DNA of 38,886 nt from a virus (IMGVR_UViG_3300035670_000585:1-38886), one strand, 5' to 3'. Shown: positions 2,697 to 30,807, counted from the stretch's first letter. Notes: generated by a model from the sequence alone, not told the origin. Translations and numbers: made by a program.

Positions 2697-2699
2697 TTT

Positions 2700-2971: not shown

Positions 2972-2972
2972 T

Positions 2973-3307: not shown

Positions 3308-3346
3308 AAAATATTAACATCTTTATTTTACAGGGAGATTTCAAAA

Positions 3347-3982: not shown

Positions 3983-3994
3983 GGGGGAACATCC

Positions 3995-4570: not shown

Positions 4571-4572
4571 AC

Positions 4573-7766: not shown

Positions 7767-7957
7767 AACAGCAATATAACGCGTTACTTGAAAGGCACTA
7801 TAAAGCAGCTGCATACCTGGACAATCAATCAATCCAGATTGATGAAAGGGAAAAATGGGTTCCGTCTTATCGGGAGTTGGTGAAAGAGCTGGGGAGAGTG
7901 CTGGATAAGATAGGACTGTATTCTGATATTGAAGCAATGGAGGGATTTGAGGTATGA
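7754..7957 (+). CDS. Hypothetical protein
   Basis: 67-aa ORF that overlaps both neighbours (operon packing). Confidence 0.5.
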   Translation: MPILKQQYNALLERHYKAAAYLDNQSIQIDEREKWVPSYRELVKELGRVLDKIGLYSDIEAMEGFEV

Positions 7958-9687: not shown

Positions 9688-9963
9688 ATGAAAATGCCAA
9701 TTATATGGATTAATGACTTTGACGCAGGAGAGCAGCTAAATAAAATTGAGGAGGAGCTGGACGAATTAATACTGGAGGATGAGGGCACACCGGAGGAGTT
9801 GGCAGAGGCTCTGGACATTATACAGGCAACGCTGACCTACATATTGCACGTCCATCCAATTGCAGCCATAGAAAAAGCGTTAGACGAACATTATAAAAAA
9901 ATAACCGGCAGGAAACACGATGTTGGAGGAGTTTTAAACTTTACTAGTCTGGAGGTGCTGTAA
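9688..9963 (+). CDS. Hypothetical protein, possibly MazG-like all-alpha NTP pyrophosphohydrolase
   Basis: ATG 9688 follows CTGGAGGT. The acidic helix pair IEEELDELILE...EELAEALDIIQ resembles MazG-type metal-binding helices. This is a weak call. Confidence 0.35.
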   Translation: MKMPIIWINDFDAGEQLNKIEEELDELILEDEGTPEELAEALDIIQATLTYILHVHPIAAIEKALDEHYKKITGRKHDVGGVLNFTSLEVL

Positions 9964-10334
9964 TGGTTTTTCATGAATCAGCCGAACAAAAATCATTAAT
10001 GCAATGGGTCAAGTATAACGAGGAGCGCATACCAGAGTTAAAACTTATTTACCACATCCCAAACGGGGGTAGGAGGGACGCAAGAGAAGCAGCAAGGTTT
10101 AAAGCAGAGGGAGTTAAGGCAGGAGTGCCAGACCTATGTTTCCCGGTTTCAAGAGGCAAGTACAATGGATTATACATCGAGATGAAATCTAAAGACGGCA
10201 AATTGTCAGACAACCAAAAATGGTGGATTGTTCGCCTAGAGGAGCAGGGGCATAAAGTCGCAGTATGTTACAGCTGGGTAGAGGCAAAAGAGGAGATTGA
10301 ACGCTATTTAAGCCGGGAGGTATTAGCCAAATGA
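9963..10334 (+). CDS. VRR-NUC domain nuclease
   Basis: Carries IPNGGRR, GVPDLCF, YIEMKSKDGKLSDNQKWW and LEEQGHKV. Confidence 0.7.
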   Translation: MVFHESAEQKSLMQWVKYNEERIPELKLIYHIPNGGRRDAREAARFKAEGVKAGVPDLCFPVSRGKYNGLYIEMKSKDGKLSDNQKWWIVRLEEQGHKVAVCYSWVEAKEEIERYLSREVLAK

Positions 10335-11000: not shown

Positions 11001-11072
11001 CTGATGTCAGCTAAGGGTAAGCGCATGGGGTTGGTTGCTCCATGATCCAGGGTTCAAGTCCCTGGCATCGGT
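11001..11072 (+). ncRNA. tRNA-like element (non-canonical cloverleaf)
   Basis: 7-bp acceptor stem CTGATGT/GCATCGG with 2 G-U pairs. T arm is CAGGG-TTCAAGT-CCCTG, and the D loop contains GGG. The anticodon stem is 7 bp with loop TTGGTTG (GGT), the variable region is 3 nt, and U8 is missing. Confidence 0.3.
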
Positions 11073-11196
11073 CTAAATGGAGTTAGCAGACACAGGATCA
11101 TATGGTCCTGTTATGTTTAGGGAAACGGTACATCACGATGGTAAGCGCAGGGGTGGGAGTGCTGTGATGTAAAGCAAAATTTATTTGAGGTGTTAT

Positions 11197-12396
11197 ATGG
11201 ATTTCAGGAAAATTAACGTAAAAAAACTGATACCGGCAGACTATAACCCAAGAAAAGATTTAAAGCCAGGGGATAAAGAATATGAAAAAATTAAACGGTC
11301 AATAGAGGAGTTTGGATACATTGACCCAATAATTTGCAATAAAGATATGACAGTTGTCGGTGGTCACCAGAGACTTAAAGTATTAAAGGATTTGGGGCAT
11401 ACAGAGGTAGAATGTGTTGTTGTTGACGTGGATAAGACGCGTGAAAAAGCTCTCAATATTGCGCTGAATAAAATTAGCGGCGAGTGGGATTTTGAGGCGT
11501 TAAAGGATTTGTTGCAGGAGATAGACACTGGCGAAATTGATATGGAGTTGACTGGATTTGATATGTCAGAGATAGAAAACCTTATGAGTCAATTTCATGA
11601 TGGAGATGTTAAAGAGGATGATTTTGACGCTGATAAAGCGTTGGAAGAAATAGTCGAGCCGATAACAAGGCGTGGGGATATATGGCAACTTGGACGGAAC
11701 CGGTTAATGTGTGGGGACAGTACACTAAAGAAAGATACAGAAAAGTTACTTGATGGAAATAAGGCTCATATGTGTTTCACTGATCCACCATATAACATAA
11801 ATTATGGAAATATAAAACATCCAAAATTTAAACAAAGAGAAATACAGAACGATAACATGTCAAAACAAGAATTTAAGAAATTTTGTTTTGAATTTACTTC
11901 GAGAATAAAAGAAAATGTTTTAGGTTGCGTATATATGGCAGGCCCTCCGGTCCCGGAGGGCCGAATAATGTTTACTGTTGCAGATGAATTATTGCATTGC
12001 AGTACAACGATTATATGGAACAAAGATCAATTTACTCTTGGCAGAAGCAAATACCAGAACAAATATGAACCCATTTGGTTTGGTTGGGTTGAGAATGGGT
12101 CAAGATTTTCACAAGACAGAACTCTTGTGAATGTTTGGGATATTAAAAGGCCAAAATCAAGCGATCTTCACCCAACAATGAAACCAATAGAACTTGTATC
12201 AAAAGCAATAAATGACGCAAGTTTAAGCGGAGATATAGTTTTAGATTTGTTTGGTGGATCAGGTTCAACACTAATAGCCTGCGAACAAATAAACCGCATC
12301 TGCTACATGATGGAACTGGATGAAAAATATTGCGATGTCATTATAAAGCGTTGGGAAACTTTAACGGGTAAGAAAGCTGAATTGATAAAGGGGTGA
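11197..12396 (+). CDS. ParB-like nuclease domain fused to N6/N4 DNA methyltransferase
   Basis: N-terminus LIPADYNPRK...VVGGHQRLKVLKDLG (ParBc), then FTDPPYNINYG (DPPY) and a C-terminal LDLFGGSGSTLIA (AdoMet motif). Confidence 0.85.
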   Translation: MDFRKINVKKLIPADYNPRKDLKPGDKEYEKIKRSIEEFGYIDPIICNKDMTVVGGHQRLKVLKDLGHTEVECVVVDVDKTREKALNIALNKISGEWDFEALKDLLQEIDTGEIDMELTGFDMSEIENLMSQFHDGDVKEDDFDADKALEEIVEPITRRGDIWQLGRNRLMCGDSTLKKDTEKLLDGNKAHMCFTDPPYNINYGNIKHPKFKQREIQNDNMSKQEFKKFCFEFTSRIKENVLGCVYMAGPPVPEGRIMFTVADELLHCSTTIIWNKDQFTLGRSKYQNKYEPIWFGWVENGSRFSQDRTLVNVWDIKRPKSSDLHPTMKPIELVSKAINDASLSGDIVLDLFGGSGSTLIACEQINRICYMMELDEKYCDVIIKRWETLTGKKAELIKG

Positions 12397-14247: not shown

Positions 14248-16302
14248 GTGGGATTTATAGACAAGTTAATGGGTCAGTTTCAGCGCAAAATGACACAGTA
14301 TACATACCAATGGAACTATGGCAAGCCAGTTTGGGCAACTCAAAAAGATGAGGCATACATACGTGAGGCATATAATAAGGTTGTCTGGGTTTATGCTTGT
14401 GTTGCCATGATTGCCAGTTGCACATCCTCTGTGCCTTGGGTGCTATACCGTAAGCGCGGCGGTAAACTAAACGAGATACCAGATCATCCAATTTTAAACA
14501 TTGTTAACAACAGAGTGAATCCTTGGCTGTCAAGCCGGGACTTTTTTGATTTGTGGGCCACATATTTGGCTCTACAAGGCAAATTTTATGCCGAAATGAA
14601 TAATCCGACAATCCCGACACAATTGTCACCTATTTACCCCCATTTTGTCAGCCCTGTGCCTGATAAAAAACAATTTGTCTCCGGGTTTGAGTTTCAAATG
14701 GGTAGTGACAAAATTATTTACCCGGCTGATTCGGTGATCTGGTCAAAGTTTAATGATCCATTAGATCTTTACCAAGGGTTGTCACCAATCAGGGCAATGG
14801 CGAGAACAATTGACACAGAGAATCAGGCTGTCGATTGGAATAAAACCACATTGCAAAATGCAGCGGTACCACCGGGAGCAATTTCGGCGGTAAACATTTC
14901 ACCAGAGACAAAAGAGAAGCTGCGTGAGGATTGGCTGAATAGGTACGGTGGCTCAAATAATGCTAGGGTGCCATTGCTATTGGATGCTGAGAGGATTCAA
15001 TACACATCCTTTGGACTAAGCCCTGTTGATATGGATTTCTTGAATCAGCGCAAGTTGAACCGCATAGAAATATGTTCGGCTTTTGGTGTGCCTGGTCAGG
15101 TGGTCGGGGATCCAGAGGGACAAACATATGCAAATTATGAGGAGGCACTAAAATCATTCTGGCAAAACACTATAGTGCCGAGGTACCTGGACAACATCAA
15201 ATCTACACTAAATAGTGACTTAGTTGCCAGATACGCGGACAATTTAGTGTTGGATTACAACCTCGATGACATAACCGTCTTACACGAATCAATTGATGCC
15301 ATCTCTGACAGGGTAACAAAATTATTCGTCAACAACATTATAACCAGAGAAGAAGCGAGAGAGGCTTTAGGCTATGAGGCAGAGGCTGACGGCGAATATT
15401 ATGCCGAGGTTGCATCAAAAATATTGCAGGGTGGCAAGACTAATCCGGTGCAAACTGGGGACGATGCTGACCAGAGCCTGACAGAAACAGATGATACCTT
15501 GGACGATGGTGAGACTGACAGAGTAAAAAAAAACTTAAAATCCGTTGACATGACGGAGGAGCAAAAAGCACTCTACTGGAAAGCATACGAGGGCAAGCGG
15601 TCAAAGTATTACAGCCGGCTTGAAAGCAAAGTTAAAGGTTTGTTTGATGATGAGCGCAAAAAAATTTCCAGTGTAGAGGCTGAAACTTATTCGGTATACA
15701 GGGCACAGGTTAATGCGGTGATCAGCAAAGGACAGGTTGATTGGCGAAACACATTGACAGCCGCTTATATTGCCATAATTGACGATTTTGGCTCAGAGGT
15801 TTACAGAGACCTGGAGAGCAAAAAGGCATTTGGTTTCAGTGTTTTTGCACAGGCTATAATGCAGTTCGTTTCATCAACCGTTGCTGAGATGGTGGTCAAT
15901 ATTACTGACACGACAAAGACCCATATTAAGCAGAGGATTGATGAGGGAATAACAGAGGGTATGCCAATCGCTAAAATAGCGAAATGGATTGACAACCTCT
16001 ACCTGGACGAAATTATACCAAACAGGTCAAAGGTTATTGCACAGACAGAGACCATCCGGGCATCAAATTACGGTTCATATGCAGCTGCACAGCAAGCAAG
16101 TTCAAACGTGAAAAAGATATGGATTCCAACCTATGACCAGAGGACACGGGATACGCATTTTGCTATGGGTGCTCATGCTCCTGTTGATATGGACGGATAT
16201 TTTACAGTGGGTGACAGCCGTATGCAGTACCCGGGAGACCCAAACGGGTCAGCAAAGGAGACAATCAACTGTCGGTGTGCAATAGGCTATGTTAGAAAAT
16301 AG
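14248..16302 (+). CDS. Portal protein fused to Mu F / SPP1 gp7-like head morphogenesis domain
   Basis: The N-terminal roughly 430 aa are portal-like. The C-terminus has IAQTETIRASNYG...DQRTRDTHFAMGAH...INCRCAIGY (Phage_Mu_F signature). Confidence 0.8.
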   Translation: MGFIDKLMGQFQRKMTQYTYQWNYGKPVWATQKDEAYIREAYNKVVWVYACVAMIASCTSSVPWVLYRKRGGKLNEIPDHPILNIVNNRVNPWLSSRDFFDLWATYLALQGKFYAEMNNPTIPTQLSPIYPHFVSPVPDKKQFVSGFEFQMGSDKIIYPADSVIWSKFNDPLDLYQGLSPIRAMARTIDTENQAVDWNKTTLQNAAVPPGAISAVNISPETKEKLREDWLNRYGGSNNARVPLLLDAERIQYTSFGLSPVDMDFLNQRKLNRIEICSAFGVPGQVVGDPEGQTYANYEEALKSFWQNTIVPRYLDNIKSTLNSDLVARYADNLVLDYNLDDITVLHESIDAISDRVTKLFVNNIITREEAREALGYEAEADGEYYAEVASKILQGGKTNPVQTGDDADQSLTETDDTLDDGETDRVKKNLKSVDMTEEQKALYWKAYEGKRSKYYSRLESKVKGLFDDERKKISSVEAETYSVYRAQVNAVISKGQVDWRNTLTAAYIAIIDDFGSEVYRDLESKKAFGFSVFAQAIMQFVSSTVAEMVVNITDTTKTHIKQRIDEGITEGMPIAKIAKWIDNLYLDEIIPNRSKVIAQTETIRASNYGSYAAAQQASSNVKKIWIPTYDQRTRDTHFAMGAHAPVDMDGYFTVGDSRMQYPGDPNGSAKETINCRCAIGYVRK

Positions 16303-16317
16303 AAAGGTGGTGCATCA

Positions 16318-16983
16318 ATGTTTGAATATAAGAGCTTTGACTTTGAGATTAAGGCTCAAGAGGACGGAGTGTTTGAAGGTTATGCCTCGATGTTCAATAA
16401 TCTGGACAGCTACAGGGATATAGTCGTTAAAGGGGCATTTAACAGGACCATAAATAATAACAGTAACAGGGTTAAGGTATTGTGGCAGCATGATATAAGC
16501 GAGCCAATCGGCAAGCCGATCATGATGGCTGAGGACGAAAAAGGATTACACGTCAAAGCGAAACTTTGCCTTGGTACTGAAAAAGGCCGACAATGCTTTG
16601 AGCTTATGAAAGACGGTGTTATAAATGAGTTGTCGATTGGATATGACACCATACAAGACGAATACGATTCAAAGAATAGAATCAGGTATTTGAAAGAGGT
16701 CCGTTTGTGGGAGTTTTCGGCAGTTACATTCGCCGCCAATGATATGGCCAAGGTCAACAATGTAAAGCGATTTGACAGATTACTCGATGAGCTGAAATCG
16801 GGGAGGGTATTGTCATCGACCAACAGAAGCAGGATTCAAGAAACGATTGACGCACTAATGGCACTCTTGATTGAGACTGACCCGGAGAGATCCACTCAGA
16901 CTCTTGAAGATCCGCCTAAAAATAGCGATATTGACCCGGACACCGTCCACTCAATACTCGAAGCAATTAAGCAGTACAAGTAA
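16318..16983 (+). CDS. HK97-family prohead protease
   Basis: FEGYASMFNNLDSYRDIVVKGAF...VKVLWQHD...PIGK, located between portal and capsid. Confidence 0.85.
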   Translation: MFEYKSFDFEIKAQEDGVFEGYASMFNNLDSYRDIVVKGAFNRTINNNSNRVKVLWQHDISEPIGKPIMMAEDEKGLHVKAKLCLGTEKGRQCFELMKDGVINELSIGYDTIQDEYDSKNRIRYLKEVRLWEFSAVTFAANDMAKVNNVKRFDRLLDELKSGRVLSSTNRSRIQETIDALMALLIETDPERSTQTLEDPPKNSDIDPDTVHSILEAIKQYK

Positions 16984-17010
16984 AAATTACAACTAAACAG
17001 AAGCAATGCG

Positions 17011-17037
17011 AAACGCCGAAAGTGGGCGTTTTTTTGT
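17011..17037 (+). terminator. Hairpin plus T-run between protease and capsid genes
   Basis: AACGCC-GAAAGTG-GGCGTT followed by TTTTTT. Confidence 0.5.
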
Positions 17038-17066
17038 TGCCCAAAATTTTGAAAGGAGTGTGTCAG

Positions 17067-18293
17067 ATGGAGACTAAAAACAACCAAACGCAGGTTGACG
17101 TTTTGCTTGCTGAGATTAAGGCAATCGCCGAAGGCAAAGCAAACAAAGATGATTACAACAGTAAAATGGCCGAGTTAAAAGAGGCTATGGACAACAGAAA
17201 CAAAGAGGTTGACCGTCAGATTGGTGACGTTGAAACCAAGTTCGAACAGCGCATGGCTAAAATGACAGATTCGATTACAAACGGTTTCAAGGCAGTTCAT
17301 CAGCCTGCAATTGCACCAGAGCAGAAGTATGGTAAGAGCTTTGGTGAGTTCCTGAGAAATGTTAAGTCAAAAGCAATGGAAATTAAGGATTTAGCAGAAG
17401 GAACTGGCGCGTCCGGTGGATACCTGGTGCCTGACCAGTTCATGGCTGAAATTCTTAAGGTAGACCTTGAGCAATCCGTTGTCAGATCCAACGGTGCAAG
17501 AATCATCAACATGACATCAAATAAGCTGATGATCCCGGCACTGGACATGGACACTAATGCAGCCGGTTCAATTTACGGTGGAGTTGCTGCTTATTGGGGC
17601 TCTGAAAATGGGACTATGACAGAAACACAGCCTACTTTCAAGAGGGTTACTCTTGAACCCAAAAAATTATACGGATACTGCGAAGATCCCAACGAACTCG
17701 AAGCTGATGCCATTGTTTCTATGGGCAGCCTGTTAACCCAGATGTTCGGTGAGGTTCTGGCGTTCGAGGAAGATTACGCTTTCTTGACAAACGCAACACC
17801 TGGCAGACCTCAAGGGATTATTACCGCACCTGCTTACATCACAGTAAGCCGCGCAACCTCCTCACAGGTCAACACAACCGACATCATCAACATGATGGCA
17901 AGGTTTAAGGGCAATATGAGCAGAGCAAAATTCTTTGTGAATCAATCTGTTCTGCCTTACATCTATGCACTGCAAGATCCAAATGGTTCATATATTTGGG
18001 CACCTTCAGCAGCTGCAGGATCACCCGGCACCCTGTACGGCAGACCTATTGTCGTAACAGAAAAACTGCCTGCGCTTGGCACAACCGGAGATGTTCTGCT
18101 TGCCGACATGGGATTCTACCTCATCGGTGACAGGGCTGGAATGTCTGTCATGACATCCGAGCATTTCAAATTCCAGAATGACCAGATGGCCTACAGAGTG
18201 ACCAAGAGAGTTGACGGTCAGGTATGGCTTGACAGCGCAATAACACCACGAGCAGGAGGCAGCACTCTGTCACCGTTCGTTGGAATCGGTTAA
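17067..18293 (+). CDS. Major capsid protein, HK97 fold family
   Basis: ATG 17067 follows AAAGGAG. It has an N-terminal coiled delta-like region followed by a capsid body of about 300 aa, in the position after the protease. Confidence 0.85.
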   Translation: METKNNQTQVDVLLAEIKAIAEGKANKDDYNSKMAELKEAMDNRNKEVDRQIGDVETKFEQRMAKMTDSITNGFKAVHQPAIAPEQKYGKSFGEFLRNVKSKAMEIKDLAEGTGASGGYLVPDQFMAEILKVDLEQSVVRSNGARIINMTSNKLMIPALDMDTNAAGSIYGGVAAYWGSENGTMTETQPTFKRVTLEPKKLYGYCEDPNELEADAIVSMGSLLTQMFGEVLAFEEDYAFLTNATPGRPQGIITAPAYITVSRATSSQVNTTDIINMMARFKGNMSRAKFFVNQSVLPYIYALQDPNGSYIWAPSAAAGSPGTLYGRPIVVTEKLPALGTTGDVLLADMGFYLIGDRAGMSVMTSEHFKFQNDQMAYRVTKRVDGQVWLDSAITPRAGGSTLSPFVGIG

Positions 18294-18312
18294 GAGAGGG
18301 GGATAACATACG

Positions 18313-18699
18313 ATGAATAAAATCATGGAAGGTATTACTGTTTCTACACAGGTGTTCCCAACGGCTACAACTGGAATCAGCGGATCAGCAACTGTTGACA
18401 TGCTGAACTACCATAAGGCCGTGGCGAAGCTTTTCGCTCACCGTTTGCCTGATGCAAAGGGCGAAGGCGTTATAACATTATCGCTGTACGAACACACCGC
18501 CGCAGCAGCTGCAGGAACTCAGGTTGCTGCATCTGTTGTAACAGGTTCTATCACATCCGCATCAGATGTATACCTTGAGGCAGAAATTGATGCTACAAGC
18601 CTGACCAAACGTTATGTTTATGCCCGTGTCGTGTCTGCAACAGGGACTGTTGTGGCTGCAACAATCGAAAGAGCAGAACCAAGATACGAGCCCGTTTAA
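18313..18699 (+). CDS. Small Ala/Thr/Val-rich head-associated protein (unknown function)
   Basis: 128-aa ORF directly after the capsid gene with SD GAGGGGG. Contains HTAAAAAGTQVAASVVTGS. Confidence 0.6.
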   Translation: MNKIMEGITVSTQVFPTATTGISGSATVDMLNYHKAVAKLFAHRLPDAKGEGVITLSLYEHTAAAAAGTQVAASVVTGSITSASDVYLEAEIDATSLTKRYVYARVVSATGTVVAATIERAEPRYEPV

Positions 18700-18715
18700 T
18701 TTAAACTGATTCAAA

Positions 18716-18769
18716 TGCCGTGGATAGGCTTGCAACCGAAAAGAGGGTTCCTGACCTCCTGCCACGGCA
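18716..18769 (+). other. Conserved hairpin element A (related to element B)
   Basis: The stem TGCCGTGG/CCACGGCA encloses GTGG-a-TAGG...C-GAAAAG-a-G-GTT...CTCC-TGCCAC. It lies in the gap upstream of the first glycosyltransferase. Confidence 0.6.
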
Positions 18770-18815
18770 GACTTTTCAGGAATATATTCAAACACTTACA
18801 GGAGGTGTTTTTTTT

Positions 18816-19709
18816 ATGCAACTTTTTAAAAATATTATTAACTTTTTCATCAAAGTATATTTAAATCAATACAAATCAAAATATTTTGAGTTGTTACAAC
18901 AGCATCAACAATACAAGGCGTTCAAAGATAACGAAATTCAAAATATTAAAAATGTTTTAAGTGCAATTGAAAAAAAACAAAGTGCAGAACAATCAGCAAT
19001 TTCTCCTCTCAATAAAACAACAAATATTTGTATCGGCATCCCCCACATGGGGATATTTCATTGGCAAACACTAAGCGCGCTTTTGTCGCTCAGAGTGCCG
19101 CCAAACTGCGTTATTAAATACCACATGGTTGGCAGTTCGTTGGTATATGAGGCGAGAGACAGCATAGCCAAATTTGCGATTGAAAATGATTGCGATTATG
19201 TGCTTTACCTTGACAGTGACATGGTGCCGCCAAGCGACATGATTATGAAAATGTTAAACACATTCGATCAGCGACCAGAATCGGGGTTGGTGACAGGCAT
19301 GGCATTTAAGCGGATACCACCGTTTCAGCCGTGTTTCTATACTAAAGTTACATACGACACAAAGATGATGAGACCTACACTGGAGAGCCCGATTGAGTTC
19401 CCGGATGAAGGGCTTATTGAGATTCAAGGTTGCGGAATGGCCTGTTGCATGATTAAAACTGAGGTATTCAGACAGGTTGATGCTGAATTGATTGGAGACA
19501 GAAAACATTATTTTTTCCCACTGCCGAACATGGGCGAGGATTTGACGTTCTGCCTAAAAGCAAAGCACAAGGCAATTAAAATGTATGTTGACTTGTCAAT
19601 TGACGTTGGTCATATTTCATCCATGCCAATAGTCAGGGATCATTTCAGGGCATGTTATAACGAATATAAGTCCAAAAACACCTCTGAACCGTTATTTAAG
19701 GAGGTGTAA
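18816..19709 (+). CDS. GT-A fold glycosyltransferase (GT2-like)
   Basis: ATG 18816 follows ACAGGAGG. Has YLDSDM (DxD), GCGMACCMIK and MGEDLTFC. Confidence 0.7.
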   Translation: MQLFKNIINFFIKVYLNQYKSKYFELLQQHQQYKAFKDNEIQNIKNVLSAIEKKQSAEQSAISPLNKTTNICIGIPHMGIFHWQTLSALLSLRVPPNCVIKYHMVGSSLVYEARDSIAKFAIENDCDYVLYLDSDMVPPSDMIMKMLNTFDQRPESGLVTGMAFKRIPPFQPCFYTKVTYDTKMMRPTLESPIEFPDEGLIEIQGCGMACCMIKTEVFRQVDAELIGDRKHYFFPLPNMGEDLTFCLKAKHKAIKMYVDLSIDVGHISSMPIVRDHFRACYNEYKSKNTSEPLFKEV

Positions 19710-20293
19710 TGATGCATATAAAAAAATATTGGGACAGCAGCAGAGACGACTTTTCAAACAGACCTACAATTTTATTTCAGCCTGACCATTTGGGATTCTT
19801 GTCGGAGTGCAAAAAAATAATTGACCTTGGATCTGGCAATGGGATCCTCGTGAACAAATTAAACGAGATGGGACACCAGGCACACGGCATCACATACAAC
19901 CAAGGCGAGGTAAATCAGCGAGTACACCAAAATGTTATATTTGGTGATATGCAGGATATACCGTTTGAGGATGACACTTTTGACGGATTCGTAATGTGGG
20001 ACAGCCTAGAACATTGTCCATCGGCTTATATTGCGCTTTGTGAGGCAAGGCGAGTTGTAAAGGATAATGGCAAAGGCTTAATTTTTATGCCGGGGCTCAA
20101 CTGGTTGAACTGCCATTGCCATATAACATGTTACACTGTGCCACAGATGGAGCAGTTATTTAGACAGTCAGGATGGACACTTAATAAAGTACATGAGAAA
20201 AAATACCCAAACGAGCCAAACAAATACTGTGAGGGCATGGCTGTTTATGAGGTTATAAACGTGCCCGGTTACAAGGCGGTGTTTGAACAATGA
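19709..20293 (+). CDS. Class I SAM-dependent methyltransferase
   Basis: IIDLGSGNGIL (motif I) and FDGFVMWDSLEHC. Its start overlaps the previous stop. Confidence 0.75.
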   Translation: MMHIKKYWDSSRDDFSNRPTILFQPDHLGFLSECKKIIDLGSGNGILVNKLNEMGHQAHGITYNQGEVNQRVHQNVIFGDMQDIPFEDDTFDGFVMWDSLEHCPSAYIALCEARRVVKDNGKGLIFMPGLNWLNCHCHITCYTVPQMEQLFRQSGWTLNKVHEKKYPNEPNKYCEGMAVYEVINVPGYKAVFEQ

Positions 20294-20976
20294 TTCATGG
20301 GATGATGTTGGTCAGAAACGAATCAGGACGCTGGCTTGAGCAAGTGTTAAAACAAATGAACCAAATATGTGACCGTGTTGTTATTCTGGACGATGCCAGT
20401 ACAGACAACACGGTTTCTATTTGCGAGGAGTTTGGCGAGGTATTTAGATCCAATAAACAAAAATGGACAACAAACGAGCTGGAGGCGCGACAAAAACTCT
20501 GGCAGCTAACGACAAACAAAGCAAGCGACAACGATTGGATCCTCTGCCTCGATGCTGATGAATTATTTGTTGACGGGCATATTGATTACATCAAATATTT
20601 ATTTCACGTTTTACCAACAGAGGTTGATGCCGTTGGTTTTAGGTTGCATGACATGTGGTCAGACACTCATTACAGGGATGACCAGTTATGGCAGGCACAT
20701 CGTTATATTTGGCCAATGGCAGTAAGGTATAAGGAGCGGTTCATTTACCACTGGCTGAATAAAAAACTGCATTGCGGACGGTTCCCTGGCAACGCATCAC
20801 AAAAATGTTACCCGACGATGATACCGATAAAGCACATGGGATGGAGCCGAGAGGCTGACAGGATTAAAAAGCACGAAAGATATTTACAGTGTGATCCTGA
20901 CGGTAAAAATGGCATTATGGAGCAGTATATAAGCATTATGGATACCAATCCAACGTTAAAATTGTTTGGTACATAG
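20290..20976 (+). CDS. Family 2 glycosyltransferase
   Basis: MLVRNESGRWLEQVL...VVILDDASTDNT and LCLDADELF. ATGA overlap with the upstream gene. Confidence 0.75.
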   Translation: MIHGMMLVRNESGRWLEQVLKQMNQICDRVVILDDASTDNTVSICEEFGEVFRSNKQKWTTNELEARQKLWQLTTNKASDNDWILCLDADELFVDGHIDYIKYLFHVLPTEVDAVGFRLHDMWSDTHYRDDQLWQAHRYIWPMAVRYKERFIYHWLNKKLHCGRFPGNASQKCYPTMIPIKHMGWSREADRIKKHERYLQCDPDGKNGIMEQYISIMDTNPTLKLFGT

Positions 20977-20982
20977 GCAGTT

Positions 20983-21042
20983 AATTTGTGGCTAGGTCGA
21001 CGGACTGAAAAGGAGTTACCCCCTTTCTCCCTGCCACAAATT
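20983..21042 (+). other. Conserved hairpin element B (related to element A)
   Basis: The 10-bp stem AATTTGTGGC/GCCACAAATT encloses TAGG...C-GAAAAG-GA-GTT...CTCCCTGCCAC. It lies in the gap upstream of the rSAM gene. Confidence 0.6.
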
Positions 21043-21076
21043 TATCTATAAGGGGCTTAACGAAAGGGGCGTTATT

Positions 21077-23101
21077 ATGAATGTTATATTGTGTTACCCA
21101 CCAAAGAGAAATTATCCCGGCTATGGTCAAGACAAAAGATGGTTGCCTTTAGGTATTGCATCACTTGGGGCATATATAAGGCAAGAATTACCGGATTTAA
21201 AAGTGACGTTGCTGGATTTGTTTGAATACAGCATGGATGAGGCTTTTGCAAAAATATTCAAAAGTATTAATCCAGACGACACCAATATATTAGGTTTTAC
21301 TTGTTTCACAGAACAAAGGAATAGTGCTTTTGAGCTATGTAAACGGGTTAAATCAATAAGACTTTTTGATGATTCAATGGCAAAGTATTGGGGAATTGAC
21401 AAAAGCGACTATAATGTTGGTCAAATAATTACTGTCGTTGGTGGACCACACGCTTTTATAATGGCGAATCAAATTGCCGAGCATTACCCTTATATTGACC
21501 ACATCATGAAAGGTGAGGGAGAGCGGTCTATTGTCAACTTAATCAAAAATTATATCGACGGTAGAGAGTCAAAGCGCATTATTGAGGCTGACATAATTCA
21601 TAACCTTGATGAATTACCTCACTGTATAGACGGATTTGACCTATTTGCCAACGTCAGCAATATGGTCGAGGCAGAAGCACCGATTATATTCAGTCGAGGT
21701 TGCACAGATTATTGTTCATTTTGCAGCACGACAAAATTTTGGCATGGATACCGCAGCCGGTCAGCTGAAAACGTATTTGCCGAAATGATGAAATATAACC
21801 AGCGGTATGGGACGACGAAATTTAAATTTCACGATGACGCATCCACCGCAGATTTAGACAACTGGAAACGGTTATGTGGATTCATTGTAGATTATAAATT
21901 TGAATACGAAATAACAGCCAGAGCAGACCAGTTTGACGATGAACTGATTGACTTACTCGCTCGATCTGGATGCAAACGTGTTGCAGTCGGCATTGAATCA
22001 GGCAACGAAAATCTTAGAAATGCCATGAATAAGCGGCTTGACATGGACGTTGCCAAAGCTAACATGAAGAAGCTAATGGCAGCAGGCATCGAGGTTGTAA
22101 TGCTGTTTATTATTGGTTATCCAGGTGAAACAGACGGAACCATACAAGAGACCATCGACCTGATCCGAGAGGTTAAGCCGTCAAGTTGGTGTTGCCAACC
22201 ACTAATGATATTCCCCGGCACAAAAGTTTATCGTGATTGTGTTAAGTCAGGATGGATGAAGGATGATTACTGGCTGCAGGATTTACCACAGCCATACTAC
22301 ATAAAGGATGTACCATTTCGGCAGCTGCAGGAGTGGACAAGACAGGTTCAAACGTGCATGAAAAAAACTAATGTTCTAATAGCTGCACCAGTGCGCCAAA
22401 ATGAGGTCAAATTCAAGCTATACATAGATAGCCTTAATAATTTGACCATACCGGACAATGTAAACGTGCAGCGACTTTTTGTTCTCCACAACAGCGAGCA
22501 TCTGAAACAGTATTTGTCACCAACTGACACCGTTGCAATAGCCAATACAGATGATGATTATATTTGCGATGAAAAGACGCATCAATGGAAGCAGCACAAC
22601 CTCAATTTTGTGGCAAACATCAAAAATCAAATCATAGAAATTGCGGTTAAAAACGGCTTTGACTATGTTTTCTTTGTGGACAGTGACCTGATACTGCATC
22701 CTGATACATTGTCGAATCTGTTGAGCCTTGACCTAGACATCGTGGCAGAAATATTTTGGACAGCTTGGGATCCGGGATCTCCATTGATGCCAAACGCATG
22801 GGATTATGACCACTATAGTTTTCTGCCTGGTACCATTGAAAAGTATAAAACGCCGGGTGTGTACCAATGCGGAGGCACTGGCGCAGCAATATTAATTAAT
22901 CGGCGTGTATTTGATGCAGGAGTAAACTACAACAACATACCAAACCTTTCTATGTGGGGAGAGGACAGGCATTTCAGCATCAGGGCAATGGCAGCAGGAT
23001 ACCCGATACACATTGACACTCATTACCCAGCAGTGCATTTATACAGAGAAAGTGACGTTGAAAAAGTATTAAAGGAGCGTGAACAAATTGCTGACAAGTA
23101 A
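21077..23101 (+). CDS. B12-binding radical SAM enzyme fused to a C-terminal GT-A-like glycosyltransferase domain
   Basis: N-terminus has VVGGPHAF and KGEGERS (cobalamin-binding domain) and GCTDYCSFC (CxxxCxxC). From about aa 430 onward: FVDSDL (DxD), GGTGAAILINRRVF and WGEDRHFS. Confidence 0.75.
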   Translation: MNVILCYPPKRNYPGYGQDKRWLPLGIASLGAYIRQELPDLKVTLLDLFEYSMDEAFAKIFKSINPDDTNILGFTCFTEQRNSAFELCKRVKSIRLFDDSMAKYWGIDKSDYNVGQIITVVGGPHAFIMANQIAEHYPYIDHIMKGEGERSIVNLIKNYIDGRESKRIIEADIIHNLDELPHCIDGFDLFANVSNMVEAEAPIIFSRGCTDYCSFCSTTKFWHGYRSRSAENVFAEMMKYNQRYGTTKFKFHDDASTADLDNWKRLCGFIVDYKFEYEITARADQFDDELIDLLARSGCKRVAVGIESGNENLRNAMNKRLDMDVAKANMKKLMAAGIEVVMLFIIGYPGETDGTIQETIDLIREVKPSSWCCQPLMIFPGTKVYRDCVKSGWMKDDYWLQDLPQPYYIKDVPFRQLQEWTRQVQTCMKKTNVLIAAPVRQNEVKFKLYIDSLNNLTIPDNVNVQRLFVLHNSEHLKQYLSPTDTVAIANTDDDYICDEKTHQWKQHNLNFVANIKNQIIEIAVKNGFDYVFFVDSDLILHPDTLSNLLSLDLDIVAEIFWTAWDPGSPLMPNAWDYDHYSFLPGTIEKYKTPGVYQCGGTGAAILINRRVFDAGVNYNNIPNLSMWGEDRHFSIRAMAAGYPIHIDTHYPAVHLYRESDVEKVLKEREQIADK

Positions 23102-23744
23102 GTTTTTTTATGGCGATGATGAACGATTTGACAGTTTGGATGGTTTTGAGCTGCCATCTGATTGGTGGAGCAGACCGCACGAATATGCCTGGGCAAGTAA
23201 GTTTTTGAAAGACGATGAAATAATAATTGATGCCGGTTGTGGGACAAATCACCCATTCAAGGATTATGCAGCTGCCAGGGTAAAAAAGATTTTTGCAATT
23301 GACAAAGATCCTGCAATCAAACAGTTTAATGACACAGATACATTGATGCACGTCCACAGCGATATTTGCAAGTTGGATGGTGATTTTGCACCGAAATCAA
23401 TTGACAAGGTGTTTTGCATCAGCGTTTTAGAGCACATGTACCCGGTTAACATTGTTGATGCCTTGAAACAATTTAAAACGGTGCTCAAGGATGACGGACA
23501 GATTATATTGACCATGGATTACCCTTATTTGATGCCTGAGACACTTATAAGCTTGGTCAATGATGCAGGTTTATGTTTTGCTGGATCTGTTGACTATGAT
23601 TTTGACAAACACAAGGCAATCAAAGGGTCATACGGAAACTTAAAATGTTACCGGGCAGTATTGTGCAAGCCAGAGGACGAAACAGAAACAAAACCGGTAG
23701 CACCAAAAGAAACTAAGCCAGTTAAACCTAAAAAGACTAAATAG
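23079..23744 (+). CDS. Class I SAM-dependent methyltransferase with Lys/Pro-rich C-terminal tail
   Basis: IIIDAGCGTNH (motif I) and ISVLEHM, with tail ETKPVAPKETKPVKPKKTK. GTG 23079 or TTG 23088 start overlaps the rSAM gene end. Confidence 0.7.
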   Translation: MNKLLTSKFFYGDDERFDSLDGFELPSDWWSRPHEYAWASKFLKDDEIIIDAGCGTNHPFKDYAAARVKKIFAIDKDPAIKQFNDTDTLMHVHSDICKLDGDFAPKSIDKVFCISVLEHMYPVNIVDALKQFKTVLKDDGQIILTMDYPYLMPETLISLVNDAGLCFAGSVDYDFDKHKAIKGSYGNLKCYRAVLCKPEDETETKPVAPKETKPVKPKKTK

Positions 23745-23755
23745 GAGGGATGACC

Positions 23756-24295
23756 ATGCCGAATCCAATGGCAACAGCTAAAGACTTTGTAACACAGGCA
23801 TTTAGGACAATTGAGGTTGAGCATAACAACATCCATGAGGGTGTATTTTTTGAGTACCCAATAATAGGTAGTTTACCGGCAGCTGGAACATTTGTTTTTT
23901 CTTTAAAAACACCAGCCGAAGAGTATGTACATTATCGCAACGAAAAACTAGCATGTAGCGGAGATAAATTGTCGATAGCCTTGCAAGAAGGAGCAACATT
24001 AACAGGTGGAACTACCGTTTCAGCAATTAACCACAATAGAGTATCATCAAAAGTATCATCTATGATAGTAAAAGTTGACGCAACGCTTACCACAGCTGGA
24101 ACAACTATATCAATAGGATATATAGGCGGTGGTACTGGTGTAGGTGGCACAAGAGGAGGAGGAGAAACTAGTCAAAGTAATGAATATGTATTAAAAAGAG
24201 ATACTGTGTACGCTGTTATTGTTACCAACAACAGCGCAGCGACAAACACAATAGTATTAAGCCCACAATGGTATGAAGAAGGAGCCAGTGGATAA
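23756..24295 (+). CDS. Beta-rich Gly/Thr-rich protein of unknown function (probable virion protein)
   Basis: ATG 23756 follows TAGGAGGGA. It has a GGGTGVGGTRGGGE loop and lies between the enzyme cassette and the head-tail connector. Confidence 0.6.
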   Translation: MPNPMATAKDFVTQAFRTIEVEHNNIHEGVFFEYPIIGSLPAAGTFVFSLKTPAEEYVHYRNEKLACSGDKLSIALQEGATLTGGTTVSAINHNRVSSKVSSMIVKVDATLTTAGTTISIGYIGGGTGVGGTRGGGETSQSNEYVLKRDTVYAVIVTNNSAATNTIVLSPQWYEEGASG

Positions 24296-24308: not shown

Positions 24309-24998
24309 TTGGCTAATTGGAACAGGAAAAGCGAAAAACCAGATTTATACCAGCCATATAAACCACAGCAAAATATTAAACTGACACTTGTCACGGGTCC
24401 AACCTTGTCAATTGTAAGCAGGTCTGAGGCTAAAAACTACATCAAAATAGGCACTGACACAACAGATGATTCTCTTGTTGATGATTTGATTGACGCGGCA
24501 ACTAGAATCATTGAAAGTGAAGCTGGTGGCATTGCTATATGTGAACAGACTTGGAAACAAACGCAAACTGGCGGCACTGATGTCATAAAGCTAATGCGGC
24601 AGCCTGTGATTGGCGTACCAACTGTCAGCTATTACGATGACTTTACAACGGTTACGGCCACAAACATTACATATTCATCTTATTTTCGTGTTGTGCAGCC
24701 AAATGTACTTGTACATGTCGATGGTTATTTTGAGGAGGGTCGGGAGCAGGACGGGTATGAGGTTATGTTTAAAGCCGGGATGTTTACGGCGTCAACTTAT
24801 ACCAATTCTGCCGATCAGCGGTTACAAATTTTTAAAACCGCAATTCTCAGAACTATTGCATGGATGTATGAGAACAGAGAGGAATACGTCAATTTTGTCG
24901 GAGAGGGAAAGCTGCAAGTCACTTATGACAATAAAGAACTACCACTTGGGATTAAACGGCTTATAATGCCAGTTCATTCAGGAGAGGGGCTGATATAA
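24309..24998 (+). CDS. Head-tail connector (gp6-like / DNA-packaging QLRG-type)
   Basis: EAKNYIKIGTDTTDDSLVDDLIDAATRIIE matches the gp6-like N-terminal motif. TTG start. Confidence 0.6.
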   Translation: MANWNRKSEKPDLYQPYKPQQNIKLTLVTGPTLSIVSRSEAKNYIKIGTDTTDDSLVDDLIDAATRIIESEAGGIAICEQTWKQTQTGGTDVIKLMRQPVIGVPTVSYYDDFTTVTATNITYSSYFRVVQPNVLVHVDGYFEEGREQDGYEVMFKAGMFTASTYTNSADQRLQIFKTAILRTIAWMYENREEYVNFVGEGKLQVTYDNKELPLGIKRLIMPVHSGEGLI

Positions 24999-26180: not shown

Positions 26181-26582
26181 ATGGCAGGTTCTTTTGGTAA
26201 TGGTGGTGTTTTTAAGATTGGGACAACAACTGTAAGTGAGTTGACAAACATTGCGCCTCCCGGGTTTAGTGCAGATGCAATTGACGTTACTACGCACAAC
26301 AACTCTACAAGGTTTCGTGAGTTCGTAAAAGGTTTGATTGACCCCGGTGAGATTACTGTTGAGGGTAATTTCAATTACACTGATTTTGCGACAGTTTATG
26401 CAGCAATGGCAACAACATCACTGCAATCAATTACCGTGACAGTACCAACAGCTCCAAGCACAACAACATTTGTCGCTAATGGTATTTTAACAGGCCTTGA
26501 AGTTGAGGATCCGCATGACGATAAAGTTAGTTTTTCGGCAACAGTAAAAGTCACGGGCAAACCGACAATTACAGTGGCATAG
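26181..26582 (+). CDS. Major tail (tube) protein
   Basis: 133-aa beta-rich protein directly upstream of the G/GT chaperones. Confidence 0.6.
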   Translation: MAGSFGNGGVFKIGTTTVSELTNIAPPGFSADAIDVTTHNNSTRFREFVKGLIDPGEITVEGNFNYTDFATVYAAMATTSLQSITVTVPTAPSTTTFVANGILTGLEVEDPHDDKVSFSATVKVTGKPTITVA

Positions 26583-28750: not shown

Positions 28751-29083
28751 ATGGCAAAACTAAAAAACATAGACGGCATAGAGATTACATTTAAGAGGCG
28801 TATTCGTATGCCTCTTTTTTTTGTTTATGAGGTTGAGCTCATAAACACCAGCGATAATAAAGCAAAGTATGATTTGCGGTATATGGTATGCAACGCTGGT
28901 GCAAATGCTTTACTTATAACACCTGTTGTAAACGGTTATGAGTTGTTAGCTGATGGAGAACTAAAATCTGGTGAGTTGGTTAGTGGCTATATTGCGTTTA
29001 TTAAAGGTGACACTGCCACAAATCAGCCTCAGTTTTATTGGATGGGTGGTAAAACAAAAGTTAAGGATAAGGAGTTGATGTAA
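28751..29083 (+). CDS. Hypothetical small tail-tip protein
   Basis: 110-aa beta-rich ORF packed tightly after the tape measure. Confidence 0.5.
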   Translation: MAKLKNIDGIEITFKRRIRMPLFFVYEVELINTSDNKAKYDLRYMVCNAGANALLITPVVNGYELLADGELKSGELVSGYIAFIKGDTATNQPQFYWMGGKTKVKDKELM

Positions 29084-30807
29084 TGGCTGGTGTAGATAGT
29101 AATGTTAAATTGTTGTGTCACTTTAACGGTACTGATGGCAGTACAACAATAGTTGACGATTATGGCGGTAACACACTAACGAGCGCAAATGGCGCAGCCC
29201 TTGAAACCGATGCAAAAAAATTTGGTAGTGCATCATTGAGGCTAAAAGAGCAGATTGATAGTGACAGCTATACAAAATTACTGATGAATTTTGAGGGACA
29301 TGATGAAGGCACAACTTTTTTGGACAAAAGTCCTTCTGCCCATACATTAACAGCCAACGGTGGTGTGCAAACAGAAAGTGCAGAACAACAATTTGGTCAT
29401 ACGTCAGGATATTTTGACGGAAATGGGGATTACATAAGTATACCAGATTCGGATGATTGGAATTTTGGAAGTGGTGATTTTACAATTGAAATGTGGGTAA
29501 GACCATCGCAATTATCAGTTAATGGTAACATATGGTTTTCGCAAGGTGATGACACAAATAATAGATACTCATTTTTTTCAATTAACAGTAAAATTCGTTT
29601 TTTGTTGTATATTGGTGGTGCTGTAAAAGCATTATATGAAACAACGAATAATGTTTTGAGTTTGAATACGTGGGCTCATGTAGCATTTGTGAGAAGTGGT
29701 ACAAATATATATATATTTGTTAATGGTGAATCTAAATCACTTACGGTTACAACGGCTATCAGTACAACAGCAATGCCAAACTTATCGTCTGAGGTTTTTA
29801 TTGGTGCTAGAAACATCGGCGGCACTCCAGATTTATACTATAACGGATACATGGACGATTTGCGAGTATCAAAAGGCATTGCTAGATATACGTCAAATTT
29901 TACAGCACCAACTAAATCATTTGTAACATATGGATATGTAACATTTCCAGCAAATGATAATTTTAATTTTGGCACGGGCGAATATACTATTGATTTTTGG
30001 TTTAAAACAGCAGCGTTATTATCATCATCTAGTAAAGCTCATAGAATTGTTGCATTATTATCGTCAACGGATGTAAATATTTCAATGTCATACAACGCTT
30101 TTAATACTAAAAAAATATATATATTTATTGGTGATGATACATTAAATGAATTAATAAGCACAACAGAATTAACAGCAGATACATGGTATCATATCGCTTT
30201 AGTGCGCAGCGGAACTACAGTTACATTATATATAAATGGCACATCAGAAGATACATATACATCATCAATGAATCATCAATTTGATTTAGGCGGAGGAATC
30301 GGATTCTTTACAGACGAAAATAGTGAAGTCAATTGTTACATTGACGAATTACGCATATCTGATGTAGCAAGATGGACAAGCAATTTTACGCCACCTACAG
30401 AAGAATATTACGATACTTTAAACCAACCTGCTGTGCAAATATCAACAACAACAGGAATTATACAAGTGCTGGAGTTTCAACGAACCGTCAGCATTGAAAC
30501 ATCCACAGAAATAACCGTCACAAGTACAAGCCACGGCATGTCAACAGGTGATTTTATGGTGAACTATAGCAGAAGATCAAATAGCCAGTTAAACGCCGAA
30601 CGTGGCAGCCGTAAAGTTAATGTAGTAGATGCCAATACTTTTACAGTTGCGCCTGCAATAACAAGCATGACAACTGGTGACATTGTAGCTTTGCATAAAT
30701 TCATCGACAGAACAGCTTATTTATTGGACGGGACACTTGACATCCGACTACGATCTGGTGGACAGAATGAGGCAAGTTTTACGCTGAAAACAACTTATAC
30801 ACCGTAA
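29083..30807 (+). CDS. Tail protein with two LamG / concanavalin-A-like lectin domains
   Basis: Internal duplication: DWNFGSGDFTIEMWVRP...WAHVAFVRSGTNIYIFVNG...MDDLRVSKGIARYTSNFTAP matches NFNFGTGEYTIDFWFKT...WYHIALVRSGTTVTLYING...IDELRISDVARWTSNFTPP. Confidence 0.75.
   Translation: MAGVDSNVKLLCHFNGTDGSTTIVDDYGGNTLTSANGAALETDAKKFGSASLRLKEQIDSDSYTKLLMNFEGHDEGTTFLDKSPSAHTLTANGGVQTESAEQQFGHTSGYFDGNGDYISIPDSDDWNFGSGDFTIEMWVRPSQLSVNGNIWFSQGDDTNNRYSFFSINSKIRFLLYIGGAVKALYETTNNVLSLNTWAHVAFVRSGTNIYIFVNGESKSLTVTTAISTTAMPNLSSEVFIGARNIGGTPDLYYNGYMDDLRVSKGIARYTSNFTAPTKSFVTYGYVTFPANDNFNFGTGEYTIDFWFKTAALLSSSSKAHRIVALLSSTDVNISMSYNAFNTKKIYIFIGDDTLNELISTTELTADTWYHIALVRSGTTVTLYINGTSEDTYTSSMNHQFDLGGGIGFFTDENSEVNCYIDELRISDVARWTSNFTPPTEEYYDTLNQPAVQISTTTGIIQVLEFQRTVSIETSTEITVTSTSHGMSTGDFMVNYSRRSNSQLNAERGSRKVNVVDANTFTVAPAITSMTTGDIVALHKFIDRTAYLLDGTLDIRLRSGGQNEASFTLKTTYTP

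Follow-up and report, generated by a model that had tools for sequence, protein, structure and literature searches.

What are five enzyme genes doing among the head-morphogenesis genes of a phage? The question is raised by IMGVR_UViG_3300035670_000585, a whole metagenomic contig of 38,886 bp (here the window) that carries a temperate siphophage-like genome. Positions 18816 to 23744 of its plus strand hold five closely packed enzyme genes, in the order GT-A glycosyltransferase, methyltransferase, GT2 glycosyltransferase, radical S-adenosylmethionine (SAM)-GT-A fusion, and methyltransferase. On the sequence evidence, we consider it somewhat probable that this cassette is a module for virion-protein glycosylation and glycan tailoring that is expressed with the structural genes. 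An initial annotation, made before our analysis, had described five co-directional enzyme genes and assigned a domain to each. All the open reading frames (ORFs) were present as described, and all five domain calls agreed with Pfam, PHROG, and family profiles.

GT-A 1 (18816-19709; phrog_12406 glycosyltransferase and phrog_1574, with a weak Anp1 match) is followed by methyltransferase 1 (19709-20293; class I SAM, Methyltransf_11), the GT2 glycosyltransferase (20290-20976; Glycos_transf_2), the radical SAM-GT-A fusion (21077-23101; Radical_SAM, B12-binding, and Anp1), and methyltransferase 2 (23079-23744, with TTG 23088 as the likely start; class I SAM, Methyltransf_11). The N-terminal part of the fusion (21077-22321) consists of a B12-binding-like Rossmann domain and a radical SAM core, and the C-terminal part (22322-23101) is a second GT-A domain, GT-A 2. 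Four of the five proteins passed the curated Pfam cut-offs, the exception being GT-A 1. No transmembrane-like hydrophobic segments were predicted in any of the cassette enzymes.

The cassette had been placed within the head-morphogenesis operon, and its flanks bear this out. On the 5′ side, and on the same strand, are the genes for an S78 protease (16318-16983), the major capsid protein with an HK97 fold (17067-18293; Phage_capsid, E = 1e-51; phrog_10; start in agreement with homologs), and a small jelly-roll protein of 128 amino acids (18313-18699; no Pfam or PHROG match). The 3′ boundary of the slot is the gene for the head-tail adaptor (24309-24998, plus strand; phrog_442, phrog_40, and Phage_connect_1). 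Just before the adaptor, also on the plus strand, lies the gene for a Ser/Thr- and Gly-rich protein of 181 amino acids (23750-24295, likely start at 23756; phrog_5335, E = 4e-14). This protein is probably head associated; in phages with two glycosyltransferases (GTs) in the slot, its homolog is encoded between portal/MuF and protease. Start/stop overlaps that had been reported within the cassette were read directly as TAATG at 19709, ATGA at 20290, and an overlap of 14 to 23 nt at 23079-23101. The gap between the last methyltransferase gene and the next gene is only 5 nt, and the AGGAGG-type ribosome sites are strong. GT-A 1 starts at ATG 18816, with AGGAGG 9 nt upstream; a longer GTG ORF from 18720 was judged unlikely.

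The same block recurs beside capsid genes in metagenomic relatives, as a synteny search suggested by the initial annotation revealed (related metagenomic contig loci are given L-numbers). We found approximately 38 distinct full-length homologs of the fusion, with 37 to 63% identity, on contigs of 17 to 101 kb, and approximately 13 stand-alone orthologs of its radical SAM part, also in metagenomes. In L009 to L013 the order is capsid, small protein, GT-A, methyltransferase/GT2, radical SAM-GT, methyltransferase, and adaptor, with the final two genes overlapping in L012 and L013. The five-gene set keeps its position although the capsid proteins are only 42 to 59% identical.

The content of this slot is graded. 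It holds no GT in L126 and L128, one GT-A in L107 and L110, two GT-A paralogs alone in L001 to L008, L124, and others (more than 25 IMG/VR contigs), and five enzymes in the group to which this contig belongs. The series indicates that the GT-A pair would be the core and that GT2, the radical SAM enzyme, and the methyltransferases would be an add-on, with the radical SAM enzyme fused to the second GT-A. The add-on also travels alone. Two unrelated larger phages, L014 and L015, carry a 1,004-amino-acid multi-GT protein with the GT2 ortholog inside it, an unfused radical SAM enzyme, and both methyltransferases. In L015, a 106-kb phage, the genes for multi-GT, radical SAM, methyltransferase 1, and methyltransferase 2 lie between terminase and portal. 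In L014, the set is accompanied by genes for a short-chain dehydrogenase/reductase (SDR), a DUF2284 protein, and a nucleotidyltransferase; the SDR and nucleotidyltransferase point to sugar-nucleotide chemistry. In a sister lineage (L178 to L180) the set is dispersed and the radical SAM enzyme is unfused (L178, 610-1839; L179, 10001-11266; L180, 10001-11260). Its gene immediately precedes that for the tail tube in L178 and L179; in L180 it is also upstream, and a few genes, one of them for an ERF recombinase, intervene. Methyltransferase 2 accompanies the radical SAM enzyme in every lineage examined, including L009 to L015 and L178 to L180; methyltransferase 1 does not. In L009, two large extra genes (842 and 638 amino acids; 14373-18831) lie between cassette and adaptor, and Rha-family antirepressor-like genes occur inside the cassette of L179 (3913-4656) and beside the terminase gene in L012 (2543-3286 and 20913-21638).

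Outside this group, relatives of the radical SAM enzyme are remote. Only distant matches were found among 50,697 phage records. Streptomyces phage SF3 gp36 was considered as a member of the same family and rejected; its gene adjoins those for a thymidylate kinase and a NUDIX protein, a nucleotide context. A search of 185,579 species genomes (one genome for each species) found no close prophage copy, the best matches having 28 to 32% identity over the radical SAM part only. The distant cellular homologs lie in multi-paralog radical SAM arrays without GT or methyltransferase partners, and they offered no clue to function. Judged from these searches, the radical SAM-GT clade is phage specific.

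The two paralogs belong to the GT-A class by fold or profile matches and by a DxD motif, and the DSD aspartate, D242, and H266 are invariant. In GT-A 1 the motif reads LDSD and is invariant in 16 homologs. The family profile of GT-A 1 matches Mnn9 (1.7e-9), COLGALT1 (7e-7), and STIV A197 (1.4e-4); by these matches, GT-A 1 is Anp1/GT62- and GT25-like. GT-A 2 (residues 416 to 650 of the fusion) is a paralog of GT-A 1 and is encoded by a stand-alone gene in the two-GT phages. Its motif reads VDSD. It matches Anp1 above the cut-off (E = 9e-8) and is the only domain in the cassette to do so. Its profile matches COLGALT1, the galactosyltransferase of collagen hydroxylysine, at 2e-6, and the fold of its AlphaFold model matches those of COLGALT1, the GT domain of LH3, Mnn9, RmlT, and TarP.

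The GT2 enzyme matches Glycos_transf_2 (PF00535) at E = 2e-9, with 37.8 bits against a cut-off of 23.3. The motifs DDxSxD and LDADE are invariant (D34, D35, and D88-A-D90-E). Compared with the PDB, its family profile matched GmaR (6.7e-10), SunS (2e-7), and ThuS (4e-5) ahead of TarS; a match to the NCBIfam SunS family (E = 2e-6) fell under the cut-off. GmaR is the flagellin O-GlcNAc transferase of Listeria, and SunS and ThuS are glycocin S-glycosyltransferases. At the level of profiles, the closest solved relatives of GT2 are thus protein or peptide GTs. The likeness extends over the nucleotide-sugar-binding half, including the DxD motif, and covers approximately 100 residues. In contrast to GmaR, SunS, and ThuS, GT2 is without tetratricopeptide repeat or peptide-binding domains, and its acceptor half is unrelated. 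No DNA glycosyltransferase was found among the profile relatives of the GT-A and GT2 enzymes.

The fusion protein matches Radical_SAM (PF04055) at E = 6e-29. With 33.4 bits, its match to B12-binding (PF02310) passes the cut-off of 32.1 bits; a comparable domain is present in AprD4, which does not use cobalamin, and the stand-alone radical SAM orthologs P0047 to P0051 are without a Pfam B12-binding match. In an alignment of 45 sequences, the CxxxCxxC cysteines (C209, C213, and C216), GGxH, and EGE (inside a conserved GEGE) are invariant. The AlphaFold model of the fusion has a pLDDT of 90.6, and the fold of its radical SAM part matches TsrM, AprD4, MgmA, MiaB, OxsB, TokK, and CysS. In sequence comparisons, AprD4 is the best solved relative, with an alignment limited to the radical SAM core. 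MgmA and OxsB are next, and for these two the profile alignment takes in the Rossmann domain as well. The fusion resembles the class B radical SAM enzymes (TsrM, TokK, CysS, OxsB, and MgmA) and AprD4 in having an N-terminal Rossmann domain followed by a CxxxCxxC core, with fold and profile matches at E = 1e-18 to 1e-24. It differs from these enzymes in that identity is only 13 to 19% and in that the radical SAM part is fused to a GT-A domain. For the fold as modeled, "B12-type radical SAM" is a fair description.

AprD4 is a cobalamin-independent sugar 1,2-diol dehydratase with a B12-like domain, and MgmA is the C-methylase of a glutamine of methyl-coenzyme M reductase. The radical SAM enzyme of the cassette reached no NCBIfam equivalog cut-off: the best match was ApyD, with 131 bits against 750, and the AprD4-type family NF033070 scored 71 bits against 500. 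No AprD3-like SDR partner was found among the scanned ORFs of the contig; an SDR gene neighbors the ortholog in L014 only. The initial annotation had suggested that the glycan may be C-methylated. With AprD4, a dehydratase, closest by sequence, C-methylation is not established and is one option only.

Both methyltransferases match Methyltransf_11 (cut-off, 21.2 bits), methyltransferase 1 with 55.1 bits (E = 1e-14) and methyltransferase 2 with 42.3 bits (E = 1e-10), and the glycine-rich motif I is conserved in both. Methyltransferase 2 also has a weak match to CpaM. Its C-terminal tail (23670-23741) is nonconserved and rich in Lys, Pro, Glu, and Thr (KPEDETETKPVAPKETKPVKPKKTK).

Which proteins might accept a glycan? 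The tail tube protein (26181-26582, plus strand) was recognized through a faint Pfam match to Phage_TTP_11 in its L009 to L013 orthologs. It carries a loop motif, xTxPS (P89-T-A-P-S93; nt 26445-26459), of which T90, P92, and S93 are nearly invariant. All 38 loci with a GT-A pair have the motif (25 distinct proteins), whereas it is missing from all 18 loci with no GT-A or one. On this pattern, the xTxPS loop is the best candidate acceptor, and we regard it as a lead. The location of the radical SAM gene ahead of the tail tube gene in L178 to L180 also speaks for the tube protein. No significant PDB match was obtained with which the loop could be mapped on a solved tube structure.

The 128-amino-acid protein is 20% Ser plus Thr and has 55 homologs. 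Its model (pLDDT, 74) matches jelly-roll/TNF-like beta-sandwiches, with TM-scores of 0.72 to 0.75 to small uncharacterized phage proteins. In every case its gene follows the capsid gene directly and precedes any GT genes, and it is also present in phages without GTs. Based on the modeled fold, the product is probably a head decoration protein and a candidate acceptor. The HK97-fold capsid protein is a possible acceptor. We also considered collagen-like repeats, an idea that came from the similarity to COLGALT1; none are encoded in the contig.

The intergenic gaps at 18700-18815 and 20977-21076 are not empty. Each contains a structured RNA element that matches the int-alpA RNA family (Rfam RF02996) above its gathering score of 35.8 bits. 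Copy 1 (20985-21054, plus strand; 56.8 bits, E = 2.4e-9) is in the leader of the radical SAM-GT gene, and copy 2 (18717-18781, plus strand; 40.6 bits, E = 3.7e-5) is in the leader of the GT-A 1 gene. These two copies are the only Rfam matches in the contig. Copy 2 scored 53.6 bits with a covariance model of our own (R2), and the fold z-score for 18697-18818 was -3.1. Equivalent positions match RF02996 in L009 (9914-9980 and 7824-7884) and L124 (880-944), with scores of 46.8 and 42.9 bits in the relatives, and the copy 1 position is also occupied in L009, L200, and L226.

Over 692 kb of related loci, two rounds of covariance-model searching identified 22 int-alpA copies, every one in the sense orientation. 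Seventeen lie directly upstream of the first GT-A gene, four directly upstream of the radical SAM-GT gene, and one elsewhere. In the alignment of the 21 distinct sequences, which was fitted to the model and hence favors structure, 96.8% of cells pair, 14 of 16 pairs have changes on both sides, and the covariation score is 0.807, compared with 0.24 for shuffles and 0.09 to 0.16 for slid partners. The three-way junction is well supported by this covariation and is kept, with P1, two hairpins, and conserved UAG and GA(A/C)AAG joints. Two other approaches to the element were abandoned: MAFFT with RNAalifold misaligned the 3′ half and was replaced by the covariance models, and a hand-written regular expression was too strict and noisy (10 matches, versus 6 in shuffles). 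In 13 of 15 leaders, a short covarying hairpin, with the Shine-Dalgarno sequence inside its loop or at the loop edge, lies 3′ of the int-alpA-like element and just ahead of the start codon. This hairpin is at 18790-18818 and 21055-21079 in the window, and equivalents are present in L001, L008, L009, L098, L186, L209, L216, and L219. The family takes its name from an association with integrase and alpA genes; the known motif lies beside such genes, whereas here it is the leader of glycosyltransferase genes in a phage late operon.

Sister-branch phages with the full cassette have a different arrangement in the gap after the small protein gene, namely, a terminator-like hairpin with a T run followed by TGnTATAAT. 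We identified this by eye in eight loci (L012, 7552-7620; L013, approximately 7710-7790; and L101, L130, L179, L200, L205, and L226); in L012, hairpins are present at both gaps (7552-7620 and 9957-9973). The arrangement resembles punctuation within the late operon. The initial annotation had argued from the lack of a recognizable promoter that the enzymes are translated with the late structural genes. Part of that argument stands, in that the genes overlap and the contig is not enriched in promoter-like matches (48, compared with 39.4 ± 6.4 in shuffles) or terminator-like matches (11, compared with 13.0 ± 4.1). The conserved, covarying RNA in both gaps, and the terminator-like hairpin and TGnTATAAT of the sister branch, show the rest of it to be an oversimplification. 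From these sequence features, we conclude that in every lineage a putative regulatory element separates the enzyme genes from the capsid genes, which are highly expressed. The RNA leader could act by attenuation, processing, stabilization, or ligand sensing. At the 3′ end of the cassette we found no terminator, the last gene being 5 nt from the next structural gene or overlapping it. Cassette transcripts would therefore run into the adaptor and tail genes, which argues against a classical moron, although the genes may also be expressed from the prophage.

Two further observations concern RNA structures. The top-ranked terminator-like hairpin in the contig (17010-17032; GAAACGCC...GGCGTTTT and then TTTG) lies between the prohead protease and capsid genes, and together with the RNA element after the 128-amino-acid protein gene it brackets the capsid/decoration gene pair. 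RAGATH-18 RNA (RF03064) matched in the tail-gene region of L011 (18270-18337), L013 (14056-14123), and L200 (19866-19933), with 68 to 73 bits against 44.9; it has no match in this contig.

To our knowledge, bacteriophage virion glycosylation has been shown only for mycobacteriophages, in which it shields particles from antibodies. The initial annotation had drawn this analogy, and it is a sound one: the layouts of Corndog and of Cluster J phages are comparable to that of the cassette. Virion O-glycosylation by Corndog gp35 to gp38 (and also in Che8 and Myrna), with capsid and tail tube reported as modified, is credited to Freeman et al. (2023) in two later papers (PMC11600133, PMC12363180). 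The Corndog order is portal, methyltransferase, three GTs, and capsid; GTs and an O-methyltransferase are encoded inside the head-morphogenesis operon, an arrangement comparable to that found here. Unlike Corndog, this cassette has a radical SAM enzyme fused to a GT, a second methyltransferase, and an RNA leader, and the host is apparently of Bacillota type rather than an actinobacterium. Cluster J phages have 8 to 10 GT and methyltransferase genes between capsid and connector, an enzyme insertion (Thibault gp11 to gp19) whose function was stated to be unknown (Pope et al. 2013, PMC3706429). Thibault gp11 falls within the GT-A family of the cassette enzymes (25% identity; 69.8 bits with GT-A profile A6), and gp19 and gp14 are weakly related to GT2. 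Unlike the cassette, the Cluster J insertion encodes a kinase and a zinc protease, and it lacks a radical SAM enzyme. TarP, like GT-A 2, is a phage-borne soluble GT-A, and it is a structural neighbor of that domain. It is a single accessory gene for lysogenic conversion, in contrast to the five enzyme genes here, which lie within the structural operon with no separating terminator.

Virion glycosylation is the best reading of the cassette because the slot is fixed in the head module in two unrelated lineages, because the genes are translationally coupled to structural genes, because of the relatives of GT2, and because of the mycobacteriophage precedent. Late in infection, the two paralogous GT-A enzymes, as the ancestral core, would draw on nucleotide sugars of the host and, in the cytoplasm, initiate and lengthen an O-linked glycan at Ser/Thr residues exposed on virion proteins; the candidate acceptors are the tail tube protein, at its xTxPS loop, and the jelly-roll protein that is rich in Ser and Thr. 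The GmaR/SunS-like GT2 would add a further sugar, and the two SAM-dependent methyltransferases would methylate the glycan. The radical SAM enzyme, tethered to GT-A 2, would act on the same substrate through radical chemistry at a C-H bond of a sugar, either in the glycan or in the donor; this could be cobalamin-dependent C-methylation, AprD4-like deoxygenation, or rearrangement. The int-alpA-type leaders before the GT-A 1 and radical SAM-GT genes would set enzyme expression apart from that of the capsid. The benefit may be a virion surface that is masked or stabilized, or adhesion that is tuned. It is a more tentative suggestion that virion proteins (the xTxPS loop and/or the jelly-roll protein) are substrates of the radical SAM enzyme and carry a C-methyl, deoxy, or rearranged sugar or a residue change. 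This would be the first virion modification of its kind, and the leader might sense SAM, cobalamin, or a nucleotide sugar.

Several observations weigh against virion glycosylation. GT-A and GT2 folds also act on nonprotein acceptors, and the wall teichoic acid GTs TarP, TarS, and RmlT are among the weaker matches. The association of xTxPS with the GT-A pair is limited to one clade and could be due to common descent and nothing more. The Ser/Thr enrichment of the 128-amino-acid protein is slight (20 to 28% in GT-bearing phages, compared with 16 to 21%) and is confounded by phylogeny. We rejected the C-terminal extension of the capsid protein as evidence for a GT-specific acceptor, since its ...TLSPFV ending is also found in relatives without GTs. 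Corndog gp35 to gp38 have no sequence similarity to the cassette proteins, with nothing under E = 0.03 in blastp or profile comparisons. The family matches, all below equivalog cut-offs, do not fix the chemistry or cobalamin use of the radical SAM enzyme. The terminator-like hairpin and TGnTATAAT before the sister-branch cassettes make independent expression possible, and in L178 and L179 the methyltransferase 2 ortholog is encoded on the opposite strand after the endolysin gene, outside the late operon.

The last two of these points fit the main alternative explanation, namely, that the cassette modifies a host envelope glycopolymer (wall teichoic acid, cell-wall polysaccharide, or an S-layer or flagellar glycan), either in the prophage state or late in infection, and thereby blocks superinfection or keeps progeny from binding to debris. 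The position of methyltransferase 2 in L178 and L179 is moron-like, the phage is temperate, with an integrase fragment and a helix-turn-helix (HTH) repressor-like gene, and prophage-encoded TarP, RmlT, and TarS are among the fold and profile neighbors of the GTs. An RNA leader family that takes its name from integrase and alpA genes would also suit a prophage function. Nevertheless, we consider envelope modification unlikely. Without a 3′ terminator, the transcript continues into the adaptor and tail genes; the slot is fixed in the head module over 40 to 60% protein divergence and in an unrelated lineage; a flippase, a polyprenol-type GT, and membrane segments are all absent from the cassette; and the top relatives of GT2 are protein GTs.

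Doubtful to a greater degree is the proposal that the radical SAM enzyme and the methyltransferases act on residues of virion proteins, in the manner of enzymes for ribosomally synthesized and posttranslationally modified peptides (RiPPs), for example by C-methylation, with glycosylation a separate matter. The fusion to a GT and the SDR and nucleotidyltransferase neighbors in L014 point to sugar chemistry, as does a best sequence match to the sugar enzyme AprD4. MgmA is nevertheless among the relatives, together with the RiPP radical SAM family ApyD (131 bits) and the RiPP C-methyltransferase family TIGR03975, although all the family scores are far under the curated cut-offs. In addition, GT2 resembles the glycocin S-glycosyltransferase SunS, and in L178 to L180 the tail tube gene is preceded by the radical SAM gene (directly so in L178 and L179). 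Hypermodification of phage DNA by base glycosylation and methylation, which the initial annotation had already thought less likely, appears highly improbable. Pfam scans of the large ORFs of the contig found no dCMP/dUMP hydroxymethylase, TET/JBP dioxygenase, or base kinase (small or unannotated ORFs could escape these scans). The cassette is in the head module, far from the replication genes, and no relative of its GTs is a DNA GT. These findings outweigh what might be said for DNA modification: that phage GTs commonly glucosylate DNA, according to statements in reviews; that this phage has a C5 cytosine methylase and an N6/N4 methylase; and that the L015 module lies near the terminase gene.

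Virion glycosylation, and GT and methyltransferase cassettes in phage head operons, are already known. The initial annotation had noted no head-operon cassette that adds a class B radical SAM enzyme and two methyltransferases, and we found no description of a radical SAM enzyme in such a cassette in the 50,697 phage records or in the literature. Nor did we find described a GT-fused B12-type radical SAM enzyme in such a cassette, the second methyltransferase, an occurrence outside actinobacteriophages, the graded series, or the int-alpA leader. If virion glycosylation is the correct reading, phage glycan coats would be more widespread and chemically richer than thought, extending beyond mycobacteriophages and involving radical chemistry. 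The GT-fused B12-type radical SAM enzymes would be a new family with a genetic context for finding the substrate, and the series of 0, 1, 2, and 5 enzymes would be natural material for dissecting glycan assembly. The glycosyltransferase gene leaders would give the orphan int-alpA motif its first functional context. Virion glycans that can be programmed would also hold practical interest in phage therapy and phage display.

The remainder of the contig is consistent with a temperate siphophage. Pfam and PHROG scans identified a recombination/replication module (YqaJ, RecT, a DnaD-like protein, VRR-NUC, and two DNA methylases), packaging, head, and tail genes (terminase, portal-MuF fusion, S78 protease, HK97-type capsid, connector, tail tube, and tape measure), and lysis genes (a BhlA holin and an Amidase_3 endolysin). 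We found no near-identical DNA in isolated phages. For the terminase, the nearest matches come from Clostridium tetani phage phiCT453A (64% identity), from Marinitoga viruses, and from a Thermoanaerobacterium phage, which suggests that the host is probably an anaerobe. A host that is apparently of Bacillota type is indicated by the holin, lysin, and DnaD-like genes, and taken together an anaerobic Gram-positive bacterium is probable. An anaerobic host would suit an oxygen-sensitive radical SAM enzyme. The signs of a temperate life style are the HTH repressor-like gene and the integrase, a C-terminal fragment of which is encoded at the contig end (38380-38814, minus strand). Possible readings of the contig are a prophage that was cut at the attachment site and a genome that is permuted.

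Several other features lie outside the cassette. A tRNA-Thr gene (anticodon GGT; 11001-11073) is located between the replication and packaging modules; the candidate acceptor virion proteins are Thr rich. The C5 cytosine DNA methylase ORF (7954-8523; 189 amino acids) matches the Pfam profile over the profile's N-terminal half alone and could be a split or frameshifted gene, and a ParB N-terminal domain is fused to the N6/N4 DNA methylase (11185-12396). Among the relatives, L009 has a TnpB-like gene (Cas12f1-like_TNB; 1445-2713) inserted between terminase and portal. In L015, the large terminase is seemingly encoded in two ORFs followed by an HNH endonuclease gene (1245-5080), which may be an intein or homing-endonuclease arrangement. 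Finally, a tail protein of the window (29083-30807) has two concanavalin A-like lectin (Laminin_G_3) domains, and these predicted domains suggest carbohydrate binding at the tail tip.

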